Shown: one piece after another, positions 1,296-11,763 of the stretch
Position numbering within the stretch: the stretch's first letter is position 1
Layout: the number at the start of each line of letters is the position of its first letter
Origin: a virus
Lineage: Duplodnaviria > Heunggongvirae > Uroviricota > Caudoviricetes
IMG/VR virus record: IMGVR_UViG_2606217100_000003
Length of the DNA stretch: 13,869 nt
Strand: one strand, 5' to 3'
Translations under genes and position numbers: made by a program
Notes under the pieces: generated by a model
Told to the model about the DNA's origin: nothing
Database searches by the model: none
The model's input: only the letters and a program-made list of their open reading frames with translations

Positions 1296-2459
1296 TTATG
1301 GTTGAATAAGCCACTCGATATCTGGTGCTACGGAAGTGTCCACACGGTTTAGCAGCACCCGATACTTTTTTCAGGCTTCCAGCAACGATCTTTCTTCCTC
1401 CGTTGCGATTTCCAGATCTACAGCATCCTGCAGTGGCGCAATATACGCACTGAATTCCTGGATGTAGAACTGTGTGGTGACGGTCTTCCAGCCATTCGGC
1501 TCCTGCTGTATTGAAGCATACCAGGCTGACGAAAACCAGAGAATGCCATCACGGGTCCAGATCCCGGTCTTTTCGCAGATATAACGGGCATCAGTAAAGT
1601 CCAGCTCCTGCTGGCGGATGACGCAGGCATTATGCTCGCAGAGATAAAACACGCTGGAGGGGTCATCCGGCGTCCATTTGAGGCCAAACGGCGTCTCTTT
1701 GTCGCCAAATTTAAGATACTGCTCCTCCCCGCAGTGCGGGCAGGCAACATGAAAACGCATAAAATGCGGGGATTCACTGGCTGCACGCTCAATCTGGCAG
1801 GTGCCTCTCACTTTGGGCGTGGAGCCACGGATGGACTTTGGCCAGACCGAGCCTTCAATACGTTTGTCGCCAAGGAACGTCGGAGAGCCTTCCTGTTCAA
1901 TATCCTCATCAAAGGCAGCAAGTTCATCATAACCCGCCACATCCACCGACTTTTCACGGTAGTTTTTTGCCGCTTTACCGCCCAGGCACCAGAAGCCACG
2001 CCCATTAGTGAAACGCTTCATGGTGAGCGTGTTATCCCGGTGCTTTTTGCCATACCACGGGGCCAGCGCCAGCAGCGACGGAATATCACGAATAGTCGGC
2101 TCAACGTGGGTTTTCATAAAGTTCTCGGCATCACCATCCGTCGGCAACCAGATAAGGGTGTTGCGCTGCTTATGCTCTATGAAGTAGGCATAAACACCCA
2201 ACAGCATTTTGGAATAACCAACACGGGCAGACTTCACCACATTCACCTCGCGGATGTAGTCGCTGCCCATCGCATTCATGATGGCCCGCTGAAAGGGCAG
2301 TGTTTCCCAGCGCCCTTCCTGGTATGCGGATTCTTTCGGGAGATAGTAATTAGCATCCGCCCATTCAACGGCGGTCTGTGGCTCCGGCCTGAACAGTGAG
2401 CGAAGCCCGGCGCGGACAAAATGCCGCAGCCTGTTAACCTGACTGTTCGATATATTCAC
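1296..2459 (-). pseudogene. Terminase large subunit (lambda gpA) N-terminal fragment fused to a tail-fibre-assembly (tfa) 3' fragment; aaaD/tfaD-like remnant
   Basis: The ORF 2459..1371 (GTG start, as in lambda A) matches lambda gpA from MNISNSQVNRLRHF through about residue 305 (GILWFSS). It then switches to a sequence matching the lambda Tfa C-terminal region (IAPLQDAVDLEIATEEERSLLEA). A TGA at 1373-1371 sits where Tfa has Trp, and the frame continues (KKYRVLLNRVDTS...) to TAA at 1298-1296. Confidence 0.8.
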
Positions 2460-2979
2460 TCAGCAACCCCGGTATCAGTTCATCCAGCGCGGCTGCTTTG
2501 TTCATGGCTTTGATGATATCCCGTTTAAGGAAATCAACATGTCGGTTTTCCAGTTCCGGAAAACGCCGCTGCACCGACAGGGGGATCCCGTCGAGAATAC
2601 TGGCAATTTCACCTGCGATCCGCGACAACACGAAAGTACAGAATGCGGTTTCCACCACTTCAGCGGAGTCTCTGGCATTCTTCAGTTCCTGTGCGTCGGC
2701 CTGCGCACGCGTAAGTCGATGGCGTTCGTACTCAATAGTTCCTGGCTGGAGATCTGTCTCGCTGGCCTGCCGCAGTTCTTCAACTTCCCGGCGCAGCTTT
2801 TCGTTCTCAATTTCAGCATCCCTTTCGGCATACCATCTTATAACGGCGGCAGAGTCATAAAGCACCTCATTACCCTTGCCACCGCCTCGCAGAACGGGCA
2901 TTCCCTGTTCCTGCCAGTTCTGAATGGTACGGATACTCGCACCGAAAATGTCAGCCAGCTGCTTTTTGTTGACTTCCAT
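2434..2979 (-). CDS. nohD: Terminase small subunit (lambda Nu1 homologue)
   Basis: 181-aa ORF with ATG at 2979, near-identical to lambda Nu1 as I recall it (MEVNKKQLADIFGASIRTIQNWQEQGMPVLRGGGKGNEVLYDSAAV...). Its 3' end overlaps the GTG start of the A fragment as in lambda. Confidence 0.9.
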   Translation of the reverse strand: MEVNKKQLADIFGASIRTIQNWQEQGMPVLRGGGKGNEVLYDSAAVIRWYAERDAEIENEKLRREVEELRQASETDLQPGTIEYERHRLTRAQADAQELKNARDSAEVVETAFCTFVLSRIAGEIASILDGIPLSVQRRFPELENRHVDFLKRDIIKAMNKAAALDELIPGLLSEYIEQSG

Positions 2980-3200
2980 TGTTCATTCCACGGCCAAAAA
3001 CAGAGAAAGGAAACGACAGAGGCCCAAAAGCTCGTTTTCAGCACCTGTCGTTTCCTTTCTTTTCAGGGGGTATTTTAAATAAAAACATTAAGTTACGACG
3101 AAGAAGAACGGAAATGCCTTAAACCGGAAAATTTTCATAAATAGCGAAAACCCGCGAGGTCGCCGCCCCGTAACCTGTCGGATCGCCGGAAAGGACCCGC
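2980..3200. other. cos packaging site (cosB-cosN-cosQ), lambda type
   Basis: The reverse complement of 2980-3168 reads like the first ~190 bp of the lambda genome (GGGCGGCGACCTCGCGGGTTTTCGCTATTTATGAAAATTTTCCGGTTTAAGGC...). The 12-nt cohesive-end sequence is at 3157-3168 (plus strand aggtcgccgccc). The adjacent cgtaacctgtcggatcgccgga matches the lambda right end (cosQ side). Confidence 0.8.
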
Positions 3201-3204
3201 AAAA

Positions 3205-3219
3205 TGATAATGATTATCA
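3205..3219. promoter_or_regulatory. Perfect 7-1-7 inverted repeat TGATAATgATTATCA (Fur-box-like), function unverified
   Basis: tgataatgattatca is a perfect palindrome matching the 7-1-7 Fur-box motif TGATAATnATTATCA. It lies about 150 bp upstream of the plus-strand small ORF/ybcV genes and just beyond cosQ. A near-identical palindrome is present at the lambda right end, so it may instead belong to the packaging region. Confidence 0.3.
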
Positions 3220-3367
3220 TCTACATGTCACAACGTGCATCTACGCCATCAAACCACGTCAAATAATCAATTATGACGCAGGTATCGTATTAATTGATCT
3301 GCATCAACTTAACGTAAAAACAACTTCAGACAATACAAATCAGCGACACTGAATACGGGACAACCTC

Positions 3368-3601
3368 ATGTCAACGAAGAACAGAACCCGCAGAACAACA
3401 ACCCGCAACATCCGCTTTCCTAACCAAATGATTGAACAAATTAACATCGCTCTTGATCAAAAAGGGTCCGGGAATTTCTCAGCCTGGGTCATTGAAGCCT
3501 GCCGCCGGAGACTGTGCTCAGAAAAAAGAGTTTCTCCTGAAGCAAACAAAGAAAAGAGTGACATTACTGAATTGCTCAGAAAACAGATCAGACCAGATTG
3601 A
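3368..3601 (+). CDS. Small basic protein with ribbon-helix-helix-like region (lambda right-end ORF homologue; ylcI/ybcW-like)
   Basis: 77-aa ORF with ATG at 3368. IRFPNQMIEQINIALDQKGSGNFSAWVIEACRRRL resembles an RHH (Arc/CopG-like) beta-strand plus two helices. The same coding sequence is present near the lambda right end as far as I recall. The SD is weak. Confidence 0.55.
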   Translation: MSTKNRTRRTTTRNIRFPNQMIEQINIALDQKGSGNFSAWVIEACRRRLCSEKRVSPEANKEKSDITELLRKQIRPD

Positions 3602-3657
3602 AGAAATTTAGATAATCGTGCAGACTACACCCCTCATATCACATGGAAGGTACTACA

Positions 3658-4068
3658 ATGGCTCAGGTTGCCATTTTTAAACAAATATTCGATAAAGTGC
3701 GAAATAATTTAAACTATCACTGGTTTTATTCTGAACTAAAACGTCACAATGTCTCACATTACATTTACTATTTAGCCACAGAGAATATTCATCTTGTTCT
3801 TGAAAACGATAATACGGTTTTAATAAAAGGACAGGGTAAGGTTGTAAATGTAAGATTTTCAAAAAATAAATGCCTTATAGAAGCCACCTTAAAAGGATTC
3901 AAATCAGGAGAGTTATCATTTTACGAATACAGGAAAAATCTTGCTACAGCAGGGGTTTTCAGATGGATTACAAATATCCACGAAAACAAAAGGTATTACT
4001 ATACCTTTGATAATTCATTACTCTTTACTGAGAACATTCAGAACACTACACAAATATTTCCGCACTAA
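3658..4068 (+). CDS. ybcV: DUF1398-family prophage protein YbcV
   Basis: ORF 3643..4068; the second ATG at 3658 has a good SD (ggaagg) and gives 136 aa, MAQVAIFK..., matching my memory of K-12 YbcV. It is on the strand opposite to the late genes, as in DLP12. Confidence 0.8.
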
Positions 4069-6309: not shown

Positions 6310-7392
6310 ATGAAAAAATTAACAGTGGCAATTTCTGCTGTAGCTGCATCAGTACTGATGGCGATGTCTGCTCAGGCAGCTGAAATTTATAATAAAGACA
6401 GTAACAAGCTGGATCTGTACGGGAAAGTTAATGCTAAGCACTACTTCTCCTCTAATGATGCAGATGATGGTGATACTACTTATGCCCGTCTTGGCTTCAA
6501 AGGTGAAACCCAAATCAACGATCAACTGACTGGTTTCGGTCAGTGGGAATATGAATTCAAAGGCAACCGCGCTGAATCTCAAGGTTCCTCCAAAGATAAA
6601 ACCCGTCTTGCCTTCGCTGGCCTGAAATTCGGTGACTACGGCTCCATCGATTATGGCCGTAACTACGGTGTAGCATACGATATTGGTGCATGGACCGACG
6701 TTCTGCCAGAATTCGGTGGCGATACCTGGACCCAAACAGATGTATTCATGACTGGTCGCACCACAGGTGTTGCAACTTATCGTAACAACGACTTCTTTGG
6801 TCTGGTTGATGGCCTGAACTTTGCAGCTCAGTATCAGGGCAAAAATGACCGAAAAGAAGTAACTGAAGCTAATGGCGATGGTTTCGGTTTCTCAACTACT
6901 TATGAGTATGAAGGATTCGGCGTGGGTGCAACCTATGCTAAATCTGATCGCACTAATAATCAGGTTATCTACGGTAACAACGGTCTGAATGCTTCTGGTC
7001 AAAATGCTGAAGTATGGGCAGCTGGTCTGAAATATGATGCGAACAACATCTATCTGGCCACCACCTATTCTGAAACCCAGAACATGACTGTTTTTGGTAA
7101 TAACCATATTGCCAACAAAGCACAAAACTTCGAAGCTGTTGCACAATATCAGTTCGACTTCGGCCTGCGTCCATCCGTTGCTTACCTGCATTCTAAAGGA
7201 AAAGACTTGGGTGTTTGGGGTGATCAGGACCTGGTTGAATATGTTGATGTAGGTGCAACCTATTACTTCAACAAAAATATGTCCACTTTTGTTGACTACA
7301 AAATCAACCTGATTGATAAGAGCGATTTCACGAAAGCATCTGGCGTTGCTACCGATGATATCGTTGCTGTAGGTATGGTTTACCAGTTCTAA
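6310..7392 (+). CDS. nmpC: Outer-membrane general porin, OmpC family (prophage NmpC/Lc-type), apparently intact
   Basis: 360-aa ORF with signal peptide [23 protein letters not shown], then [17 protein letters not shown]... and a C-terminal ...VGMVYQF ending in the terminal Phe typical of porins. It resembles OmpC throughout and is not interrupted by an insertion sequence. Confidence 0.9.
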
Positions 7393-10129: not shown

Positions 10130-10747
10130 TTAAAAAAGCGATAAGCTTTGCCCCGAATTCATCGGTAGTGGAGAGAAAGTAACATCACGTATTTGCTCCC
10201 CGAGCAGAAGAAACCTATCCAAGGGTAGCGGCGGTATCGTAGCAAACCCTGAAAGCCCCTTCTTTCTTGCAACATCTCTCGCATCCATAAGGATACGACC
10301 TAACACGTTCATACCATAAAAGTTACCTTCGGAGTCTTTACTAGCCCCCCAAAATTGGTCCTTCTCTGAGTGCTCAACAATGTCATGCTCTCCTGTGCTA
10401 TCCAGGAGCGCGAAAAACGATTCCCAGTTCTGGCAAAGCTTAACGCAGACACACCATTTCATTACCGAAACTCGATTTTTTTCCCAACCTGCACGGGTTT
10501 TAGCTTCGAAAGATCTGGCGGTTTGTTTAGCTTCATAAGGGTTGCCTTGGGTAATAATAGCCTTTTGGATATCTGGATAGTCTGGATATCGGCATGCTTG
10601 GTAAAGAATTTCACTCGATTGAATGGGTATACCATTAACTAAGAGCGGATATCCTTTGGCCATGTTGGAAAGACCACCCCATTTCTCGGTGGTTTTCCTG
10701 AAAGAAACTGTGTTGTGAAACAGGTATAGTCTATAGCTCATGATCAC
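10130..10747 (-). CDS. NADAR-domain protein (YbiA-like, DUF1768; predicted ADP-ribosyl/N-glycoside hydrolase)
   Basis: About 203-205 aa (GTG at 10747 or ATG at 10741 with SD ggtga). Three segments match E. coli YbiA as I recall it. GGLSNMAKGYPLLVNGIPIQSSEILYQACRY matches GDFSNFAAWPIKVDGKTWPTSEHYFQAQKF. WEKNRVSVMKW matches WESVKEQVMRK. IVEHSEKDQFWGA...NVLGRILMDAR matches LVEHTENDAYWGD...NRLGYLLMELR. Confidence 0.75.
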   Translation of the reverse strand: MIMSYRLYLFHNTVSFRKTTEKWGGLSNMAKGYPLLVNGIPIQSSEILYQACRYPDYPDIQKAIITQGNPYEAKQTARSFEAKTRAGWEKNRVSVMKWCVCVKLCQNWESFFALLDSTGEHDIVEHSEKDQFWGASKDSEGNFYGMNVLGRILMDARDVARKKGLSGFATIPPLPLDRFLLLGEQIRDVTFSPLPMNSGQSLSLF

Positions 10748-11763
10748 CGATTATACACATTACGCTTCATAAGTGGATACCAACAATCCAGAGCTCTATT
10801 TCCCGTTCGAAGATAAGTTCCCCACCAGTACGCTAGAGGGGTATTATTGGGGCAGTTTCTGAAAGTAAAGATAGTTCCACCAAACCCAACACCATTGAAA
10901 GTTGAAAAGCCTAAAGGCTTTATAGCATCAGAAGGATTTTGACTCTGACCAAGGATATCAAACCCAACTTTTGTCATAATTGCTTCAAAACGATCTCGTC
11001 TCTGCTCATTAGGGAAAAAATTATTCGCGACGTAACCGTCACGATATGTTCCTAAATAATGTACTTGACCGTCAGCCCATTCAGGTATTGATACACTTTG
11101 CGCTTTTGGCCAAAAAACCTCAGAACTCGAACTGTTTCGGCGTTGATTTTCAACAACTGCAAACTCACCACCATCAACGCAAACTGAAATATTCCTATCA
11201 GCAAATTTTCGTTCAAGTTGTTTTTTTATATTCCATGCTGAATACGTGTGCCCGCCTAAAAAGTACACCAATATTGTAATATTTTGGAGTTCAAAGTGCT
11301 CAATAAACCAAGTTAAATCATTGATTGCCTTAGCTCCTGAGAATGAAACATCGTCAAGGTAAATAAATTCACGGAATGAACTAACTCTTTGACGTTGTGA
11401 CAGTCTGGTCACAACGTTGAATTCTTCTACACAATCTTCGCGAAGCAAATCCAAAAACTCAGATTGACTGGTGCCTTGGTTCTGGATATCGAGAAACGCT
11501 GCGGTTTGAAAGAACCTTTCATTTTGCTCATCATTGGCGATACTACTAATAACTCTGCGATAGTCGCTCTCAGAGAAGTATCCAATCCCCATTAATCGGT
11601 CCGTTTCCTCTAAGACAAATCGCCTATCGGTTAACTCAAATTGATTAATCCATCGATTAACATGATCAATGCTCATGCCACCTTGAGGAGGGTTTCGATA
11701 GTCATTTAATTTAGTAGCAATTTGCCCCATAAGATCACGATCTGTAACATTGCTATAACACAT
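10744..11763 (-). CDS. Uncharacterised 339-aa protein with weak phosphoribosyltransferase-like motif; first gene of the NADAR operon
   Basis: ATG at 11763 with SD agga; its stop TGA (10746-10744) overlaps or abuts the NADAR start. The central FIYLDDVSFSGAKA loosely fits the type-I PRTase PRPP-binding signature (hydrophobic x4, DD, small residues, G). No other family was recognised. The gene is low in GC. Confidence 0.7.
   Translation of the reverse strand: MCYSNVTDRDLMGQIATKLNDYRNPPQGGMSIDHVNRWINQFELTDRRFVLEETDRLMGIGYFSESDYRRVISSIANDEQNERFFQTAAFLDIQNQGTSQSEFLDLLREDCVEEFNVVTRLSQRQRVSSFREFIYLDDVSFSGAKAINDLTWFIEHFELQNITILVYFLGGHTYSAWNIKKQLERKFADRNISVCVDGGEFAVVENQRRNSSSSEVFWPKAQSVSIPEWADGQVHYLGTYRDGYVANNFFPNEQRRDRFEAIMTKVGFDILGQSQNPSDAIKPLGFSTFNGVGFGGTIFTFRNCPNNTPLAYWWGTYLRTGNRALDCWYPLMKRNVYNR

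Follow-up and report, generated by a model that had tools for sequence, protein, structure and literature searches.

Between the packaging site cos of an Escherichia coli prophage and two small genes that read away from it lies a short, perfectly symmetrical sequence that matches the binding motif of the regulator Fur. The locus raises the question of whether this palindrome is a genuine Fur operator and, if so, what it serves: the genes beside it, the cos site that it adjoins, or nothing at all. By 'the window' we mean the whole stretch of DNA that was analysed, 13,869 nucleotides of the IMG/VR record IMGVR_UViG_2606217100_000003. An earlier reading of this DNA, made without database searches and referred to as the sequence-only reading, had proposed that the palindrome may place the neighbouring genes under iron control or, alternatively, that it is a conserved part of the packaging region.

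A Fur-type palindrome next to cos

The window is a DLP12-type defective lambdoid prophage at tRNA-Arg (argU), read in reverse from appY to intD, and is 100% identical to a prophage in a RefSeq E. coli chromosome. The right end of lambda aligns with it from position 3169 on, with 94% identity. Just before that point, at 3157-3168 (minus strand), the reverse complement of GGGCGGCGACCT can be read directly, which we take to be the 12-mer cohesive end of cosN. The packaging-termination signal cosQ, AGGACCC (GGGTCCT on the lambda strand), occupies 3192-3198 (minus strand); the record of phage 434 annotates this heptamer, at an equal offset, as cosQ, and it is invariant throughout all the cos contexts that we collected. 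On the far side of cosN lie a cosB-like region (2995-3125, minus strand), recognized by homology to the lambda/DE3 cos region and presumably containing the R sites R1 (about 3002-3017), R2 (about 3049-3064) and R3 (about 3100-3118), and then nohD (2434-2979, minus strand), which encodes the terminase small subunit, a Nu1 homologue (Pfam Phage_Nu1, E = 2.4e-101; RefSeq nohD).

On the opposite side, the first gene outward from cos is a ylcI/ynfO-like gene (3368-3601, plus strand), followed by a ybcV/ydfO-like gene of the DUF1398 family (3658-4068, plus strand; Pfam E = 3.3e-43; RefSeq CDS with the same span). The 77-residue product of the former had been called RHH-like, a label that has to be dropped, as Pfam assigns it to DUF3950 (E = 4.9e-21) and RefSeq to the YlcI/YnfO family, and nothing shows RHH. 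The sequence-only reading also placed the palindrome about 150 bp upstream of this ORF, and the distance to its ATG at 3368 is 149 bp. A match to the CII-binding consensus, TTGT-N6-TTGT, precedes the DUF3950 gene on the strand opposite to it (3320-3333, minus strand), and the phage 434 record annotates a CII site at the homologous position.

All head and tail genes have been deleted from this prophage, and the terminase large-subunit gene (1524-2459, minus strand) is truncated, with its C-terminus missing, and abuts a tail-fibre-assembly pseudogene (1296-1463) and appY. Because of these losses, the cos site of the window is unable to serve its own phage. Elsewhere, NADAR-family and phosphoribosyltransferase-like genes (10130-11763, minus strand), situated between the truncated replication gene P and ybcN, replace the content of K-12 DLP12 at that place and may be a moron or an anti-phage pair. 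The DLP12 porin gene nmpC (annotated ompC; 6310-7392, plus strand) is intact and encodes 360 aa; its K-12 MG1655 counterpart is a pseudogene in two pieces.

The palindrome is the 15-mer TGATAATGATTATCA at 3205-3219, which starts 6 bp past cosQ and 36 bp past cosN (bp 48452-48466 in lambda coordinates, where cosQ is at 48473-48479). It is a perfect 7-1-7 palindrome and agrees with the Fur motif TGATAATNATTATCA at 15 of 15 positions, so that the exact match noted earlier at 3204-3220, which is this core plus one base on each side, is borne out. A chance match had been judged improbable in 14 kb, and indeed the 15-mer is the sole 7-1-7 match with two or fewer mismatches in the window, compared with 0.12 expected (200 shuffles); when three mismatches are allowed, two further weak matches appear, compared with 1.12 expected. 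The full conserved block at 3200-3225 consists of an A-tract, the core and a TCTACA flank, and corresponds to overlapping 19-bp Fur boxes. Measured against the classical 19-bp Fur box GATAATGATAATCATTATC, two overlapping registers of the site (3200-3218, plus strand, and 3206-3224, minus strand) each reach 16/19, and a third (3206-3224, plus strand) reaches 15/19. Scores above 13 are rare in AT-rich random 36-mers, 0.01% of which attain 16.

Several other assignments were considered for the palindrome and rejected. An FNR site needs TTGAT-N4-ATCAA, and the TGAT and ATCA of the palindrome are separated by 7 bp. The IHF consensus WATCAANNNNTTR fits neither strand, and a Fis site requires G and C to be 15 bp apart, when those of the palindrome are 13 apart. 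The consensus of the terminase R sites fits the adjoining R4/cosQ segment (CCGGAAAGGACCCG), not the palindrome, and an RNA hairpin can be discounted, because seven A-U-rich pairs cannot close on a loop of 1 nt.

That the palindrome is a Fur box is upheld by its relatives in K-12. Using a Fur model together with a sigma-70 model, Chen et al. 2007 (PMC2189734) described two overlapping Fur sites, 6 bp apart, at 'nohA' of prophage Qin (22.3 and 12.6 bits; U00096.2 1634624 and 1634630), and an oligonucleotide with this site was shifted in gels at 150 nM purified Fur. The nohA locus had first been cloned by Vassinova & Kozyrev 2000, by in vivo selection of Fur-binding fragments. For 'nohB', which is nohD of DLP12, a 25.3-bit cluster of four overlapping sites in 28 bp was predicted at 579824, the third entry in Table 4 of strong Fur clusters (Chen et al. 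2007, PMC2189734). We converted these positions to current coordinates with offsets of +1976 (Qin) and +777 (DLP12), obtained from the nohA ends in the paper and in the current annotation; the resulting positions, 1636600 and 580601, are the exact centres of the Qin and K-12 DLP12 palindromes. Together with the Fur peaks on homologous boxes in strain CFT073 described below, these data make us confident that the palindrome is a genuine Fur operator, orthologous to the known nohB/nohA sites. The Fur site as such is thus already known from its K-12 copies (2000 and 2007), and the window copy is an orthologue. It would be a high-affinity operator for Fe-Fur, with the classical 19-bp architecture and two to three overlapping registers for Fur dimers. 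Fur very probably binds the DNA of the window in vitro; appreciable occupancy in vivo, in the context of the window, could equally well be present or absent.

Other K-12 data touch the Qin site. In Myers et al. 2013, nohA is one of the operons classified as Fur-repressed and has a ChIP-seq summit at 1634625. This summit belongs to an anti-FNR immunoprecipitation and lies no more than 1 bp from the centre of the Qin Fur box; it might be explained by co-occupancy, by cross-reaction of the antibody or by a site that is prone to ChIP enrichment in general. The main text of a K-12 Fur ChIP-seq paper (PMC4676285) does not mention the site.

Conservation of the box across lambda-type cos sites

BLAST homology between the window and more distant lambdoid phages ends at about 3219-3225, where the box itself ends. 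In 12 of 13 annotated phages examined (lambda, 434, phi80, N15, HK225, mEp237, an Stx1a phage, YDC107_1, PhiR5_1, PhiR12_1, PhiR57_1 and ev017), an element of the form (T/C)GA(T/G)AAT-RR-TT(A/G)TC(A/G) is found 5-7 bp past cosQ, and the DNA beyond it is unrelated; phage 1W is the one without the element beyond cosQ. The palindrome that had been described as near-identical at the right end of lambda is in fact an identical 15-mer.

We extended this comparison to 81 distinct contexts of cosN plus cosQ, which came from an IMG/VR scan for CCGGAAAGGACCCG and from annotated-phage and prophage loci. The best 7-1-7 match in these contexts is distributed bimodally: 49 contexts score 11-14 of 14, 32 score 5-8 of 14, which is background, and none scores 9-10. 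When one sequence was kept for each family of downstream flanks, the contexts represented 29 lambda-type cos families. In 16 of them, a full 19-bp Fur box with a score of 13 to 18 of 19 lies 4-8 bp past cosQ, amid neighbouring DNA and genes that are unrelated; in the other 13, nothing Fur-like is present within 300 bp on either side.

The conserved block in the 16 families is AAA-YGATAATRRTTATCA-nTTnCA. If the first base of the palindrome is counted as 1, then G2, A3, A5, T11, T13 and C20 are invariant, and conservation extends from three bases before the core to base 21, after which it drops to 0.1-0.3 bits. The 17-bp spacer between cosN and cosQ is highly variable in those same phages. The G and C nucleotides of the block, at bases 2, 8, 14 and 20, have a periodicity of 6 bp and equal G1, G7, C13 and C19 of the 19-bp Fur box. 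Conservation therefore concerns that whole box and not just a palindrome. In the window, a consensus scan also finds a promoter-like site, GTGACA-16-TATCAT (3231-3204, minus strand; 10/12, a consensus match only). It is directed at cos and nohD and has its -10 within the Fur box. Since block bases 22-28, where its -35 region lies, hold no information across the cos families, we do not accept a conserved leftward promoter as the general explanation.

The genes next to the box do not share an orientation. The adjacent gene reads outward in lambda, DLP12, Qin and CFT073, and inward, sometimes ending within the box, in N15, phi80, HK225 and several IMG/VR families. Because the neighbouring gene is inward or overlapping in the latter phages, they have no outward transcription unit to control. 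The 90-bp segment from cosN to the box is found in 3,828 of 5,426 complete E. coli genomes (about 70%), with up to seven copies per genome. We are confident that the box belongs to the cos module and not to ylcI/ybcV. It would then have been inherited with this module by lambda, 434, phi80, N15, HK225, Stx1 phages and many prophages, and would not have been built for ylcI/ybcV. No report of a link between a Fur box and cos was found in the searchable literature, and the cos-linked conservation of the box is unreported as far as our literature searches reach.

Several of the box-less cos families from IMG/VR (L023, L025, L130 and their relatives) have a GC-rich hairpin, GCCGGAGAAATCCGGC, directly past cosQ, where the box would be. 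The hairpin is followed by a run of eight T nucleotides on the lambda forward strand and thus resembles an intrinsic terminator situated just before cosQ, cosN and Nu1. Such a hairpin beside cosQ suggests selection against unscheduled transcription into cos.

Fur occupancy and transcription beside cos

The genome of CFT073 (NC_004431.1) contains a cos-adjacent box (reverse complement CGAGAATAATTATCA) at 1424694-1424708, 5 bp from cosQ. The Fur ChIP-exo peak P53 of iron-replete cells, at 1424699-1424711 and described as 'intergenic' to TU53/TU54 (nohD) (Gao et al. 2023, PMC10164565), falls on this box. An independent Fur ChIP-seq study of the strain has a peak at 1424721 with a height of 283, for which acnA (315) and exbB (676) in the same table can serve as yardsticks (Banerjee et al. 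2020, PMC7157518). In the fur mutant relative to the wild type, C_RS26755, C_RS07340 and C_RS07370 change by +2.95, +2.33 and +2.13 (log2), respectively (Gao et al. 2023, PMC10164565). These genes belong to the transcription units that flank the box on both sides, which are thus 4- to 8-fold derepressed, although the rise of C_RS07370 might stem from induction of the prophage in the mutant. TU53 is probably the outward unit, because the ORFs between the box and a TonB-family gene read away from cos, the strand being taken from the ORFs and not from annotation. This region (1423654-1424600) holds the TonB-family gene and small outward ORFs, one of which has a signal-peptide-like N-terminus (MKIRNILAISLATSSFSCLA...). 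The cos-proximal small ORFs look like iron-regulated morons and are 5- to 8-fold derepressed in the fur mutant. CFT073 shows that such a box can be occupied and that classical Fur repression of the units that start beside cos goes along with it.

A second CFT073 box, the perfect TGATAATAATTATCA at 3046725-3046739, lies in another prophage and has a ylcI-type flank like that of the window. A ChIP-seq peak at 3046729, with a height of 20.55 (Banerjee et al. 2020, PMC7157518), sits on it; this box has no ChIP-exo peak and is absent from the regulon tables. Other Fur ChIP-exo peaks that looked prophage-like, P14, P35 and P60 of strain 042 and P103 of CFT073, lie at dinQ, tqsA, fhuE and ydfR, and none of them is at a cos site.

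In K-12, the Fur ChIP-exo tables of MG1655 and W3110 have no peak near either box (Qin or DLP12). Expression values upon deletion of fur (Gao 2023 Dataset 3, PMC10164565) differ between the two strains. ybcV, ybcW, nohD, ydfO and nohQ are unchanged in MG1655, with counts near zero, whereas W3110 shows decreases (log2) for ybcV (-3.7, p = 7.7e-5), ybcW (-5.3), ylcI (-3.9), nohD (-2.8), ynfO (-5.1) and ydfO (-2.0, p = 2e-5), all at low counts. The neighbours of the cos boxes thus fall 4- to 40-fold in the one strain and are silent in both backgrounds in the other. The decrease in W3110 is the opposite of repression.

These data bear directly on the idea, put forward in the sequence-only reading, that Fur and iron control the genes at 3368-4068. 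If the box were the operator of a ylcI-ybcV operon that Fe-Fur represses, its location upstream of an operon that reads away from it would be as expected, as would the derepression of the CFT073 genes in the equivalent position, and by reading the sequence we found in the CFT073 flank a plausible outward promoter, TTACAG-17-TATTAT, that abuts the box. However, a scan of 2950-3700 for sigma-70-like promoters found none on the plus strand, and downstream of TCTACA the window has no match at the position of a -10 element. Moreover, the K-12 paralogues are not derepressed and even decrease in W3110, the CFT073 box with the ylcI-type flank is weakly bound and outside the regulon, and the box is kept in phages that lack an outward gene. 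The proposed control of these genes is therefore not sustained, and we consider it unlikely that the box is their operator. The decreases in W3110 might instead be due to anti-silencing, in which Fe-Fur would counter H-NS on AT-rich prophage DNA (cf. ftnA) and modestly activate the flanking genes, or to an indirect effect. Anti-silencing would account for the joint fall of ybcV, ybcW, ylcI, nohD, ynfO and ydfO, in which two paralogous loci behave alike. The H-NS nucleation motif is TCGATAAATT, and box variants that start with CGATAAT resemble it. On the other hand, the W3110 read counts are very low, this strain has no Fur ChIP-exo peak at the boxes, and MG1655 shows nothing. In addition, appY, elsewhere in DLP12, is down 16-fold in fur-deleted W3110, which suggests a broader indirect effect. 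We thus regard anti-silencing at this locus as rather improbable.

A probable cos-module operator and its known counterparts

The alternative offered by the sequence-only reading, that the palindrome is a conserved part of the packaging region close to cosQ, is supported as to position and conservation. However, cosQ is described as a 7-bp site, GGGTCCT (PMC4669245, PMC4856287); as the box is outside this site and missing from 13 of the 29 cos families, it is not an obligatory packaging subsite. It could still be an accessory subsite, at which bound Fur or terminase would aid termination before cosQ, for example as a brake. In favour of such a role, 16 unrelated flank families keep the box at a fixed position upstream of cosQ, 4-8 bp away, no matter which gene adjoins it, and the DNA that the Feiss laboratory usually takes as 'complete cos' (lambda 48446-182) contains the entire block, so that its contribution has never been separated. 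Wieczorek, Didion and Feiss are also said to have found, in 2002, that cosQ mutations are suppressed by mutations of the portal believed to make translocation slower. Against it, the distance to cosQ varies by 4 bp, which turns the helix by about 140 degrees, the pattern of conservation is that of a Fur box rather than of terminase R sites, and we know of no fur phenotype for lambda growth. The lambda cos literature examined (PMC4669245, PMC4856287) reports no packaging role for the box. We consider an accessory packaging subsite quite improbable.

It is similarly doubtful that the box has no function, being a neutral AT-rich passenger that hitch-hikes with cosQ and cosN and binds Fur incidentally. 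This explanation would fit the dispensability of the box in 45% of cos families, the lack of a regulatory effect in K-12, and the location of our copy in a defective prophage with a truncated terminase gene. But neutral DNA would not be expected to leave the bimodal scores, with no decayed intermediates, nor invariant columns at the Fur contacts, which include the C at base 20 outside the palindrome, in phages whose cosN-cosQ spacer and whose DNA past base 21 have diverged until only noise is left. The occupancy of the box in CFT073, and its association with regulation there, also speak against it.

On balance, the box is probably an Fe-Fur operator of the lambda-type cos module, orthologous to nohB/nohA and, at this locus, likely a weakly occupied and near-silent relic. 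In such a module, Fe-Fur bound to the box would repress a promoter that starts beside cos, directed either outward into morons or leftward into Nu1, and the cos-proximal transcripts would then appear in low iron only. Iron control of cos-proximal transcription may be the reason why the box is conserved, a proposal that we hold with some reserve. The DLP12 copy most likely has little effect on ylcI/ybcV. We regard it as a relic because a plus-strand promoter is lacking at the box, the late genes have been truncated, and the K-12 data show no repression.

A bolder and, in our estimation, unlikely version would make the Fur box an optional, conserved fourth element of lambda-type cos sites, with Fe-Fur 4-8 bp before cosQ acting on phage DNA transactions. 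The cos-bound Fe-Fur could be a brake that slows the incoming terminase motor for the recognition of cosQ and cosN, or, alternatively, could act as a gate that makes transcription into the terminase operon dependent on iron. If this were true, virion production would be tied to the iron status of the host.

One of the strongest predicted Fur boxes of E. coli is in reality a piece of the packaging region of lambda; it occurs in lambda itself and in roughly half of the lambda-type cos modules, and it stays intact while everything around it is exchanged. If this conservation reflects function, a textbook phage would receive, at its packaging signal or beside it, an input from a host factor (iron via Fur) that has gone unrecognised. 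The 'nohA/nohD promoter' peaks listed in studies of the Fur regulon are really repeated phage cos elements; with up to seven such elements in a genome, read mapping and regulon counts are affected.

The nohB site of K-12 DLP12 is the direct orthologue of the window site, with the same prophage, flanks and position. This site differs in that its palindrome, TGATAATAATTATCA, has a central A where the window has G, and ybcW and extra DNA lie between ylcI and ybcV; in Chen 2007 it is a predicted Fur cluster, unlike the gel-shifted Qin site. The Qin nohA site has the same 15-mer as the window, TGATAATGATTATCA, also 6 bp from cosQ, and likewise lies between a Nu1 homologue and a pair of genes, ynfO/ydfO, that resemble ylcI/ybcV. 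However, it belongs to a paralogous prophage and its flanks differ at a few bases (GTAAAG and ..CATATC, versus GCAAAA and ..CATGTC in the window), and the literature assigns it to the nohA promoter with no mention of cos. In lambda, too, the identical 15-mer stands beside cosQ, and the box is conserved among lambda, 434, phi80 and N15, although it is not one of the defined subsites of cos (cosQ, cosN, I2 and cosB). The first CFT073 box, listed by the authors merely as 'nohD/nohA' (PMC10164565; PMC7157518), differs in that it is imperfect (CGAGAATAATTATCA, 15/19) and that its outward genes are small secreted-protein-like ORFs with a TonB-family gene nearby, where the window has ylcI/ybcV. Yet it is homologous to the window box and likewise adjacent to cos, and there the box is occupied by Fur in two ChIP data sets and the flanking units are derepressed in the fur mutant.
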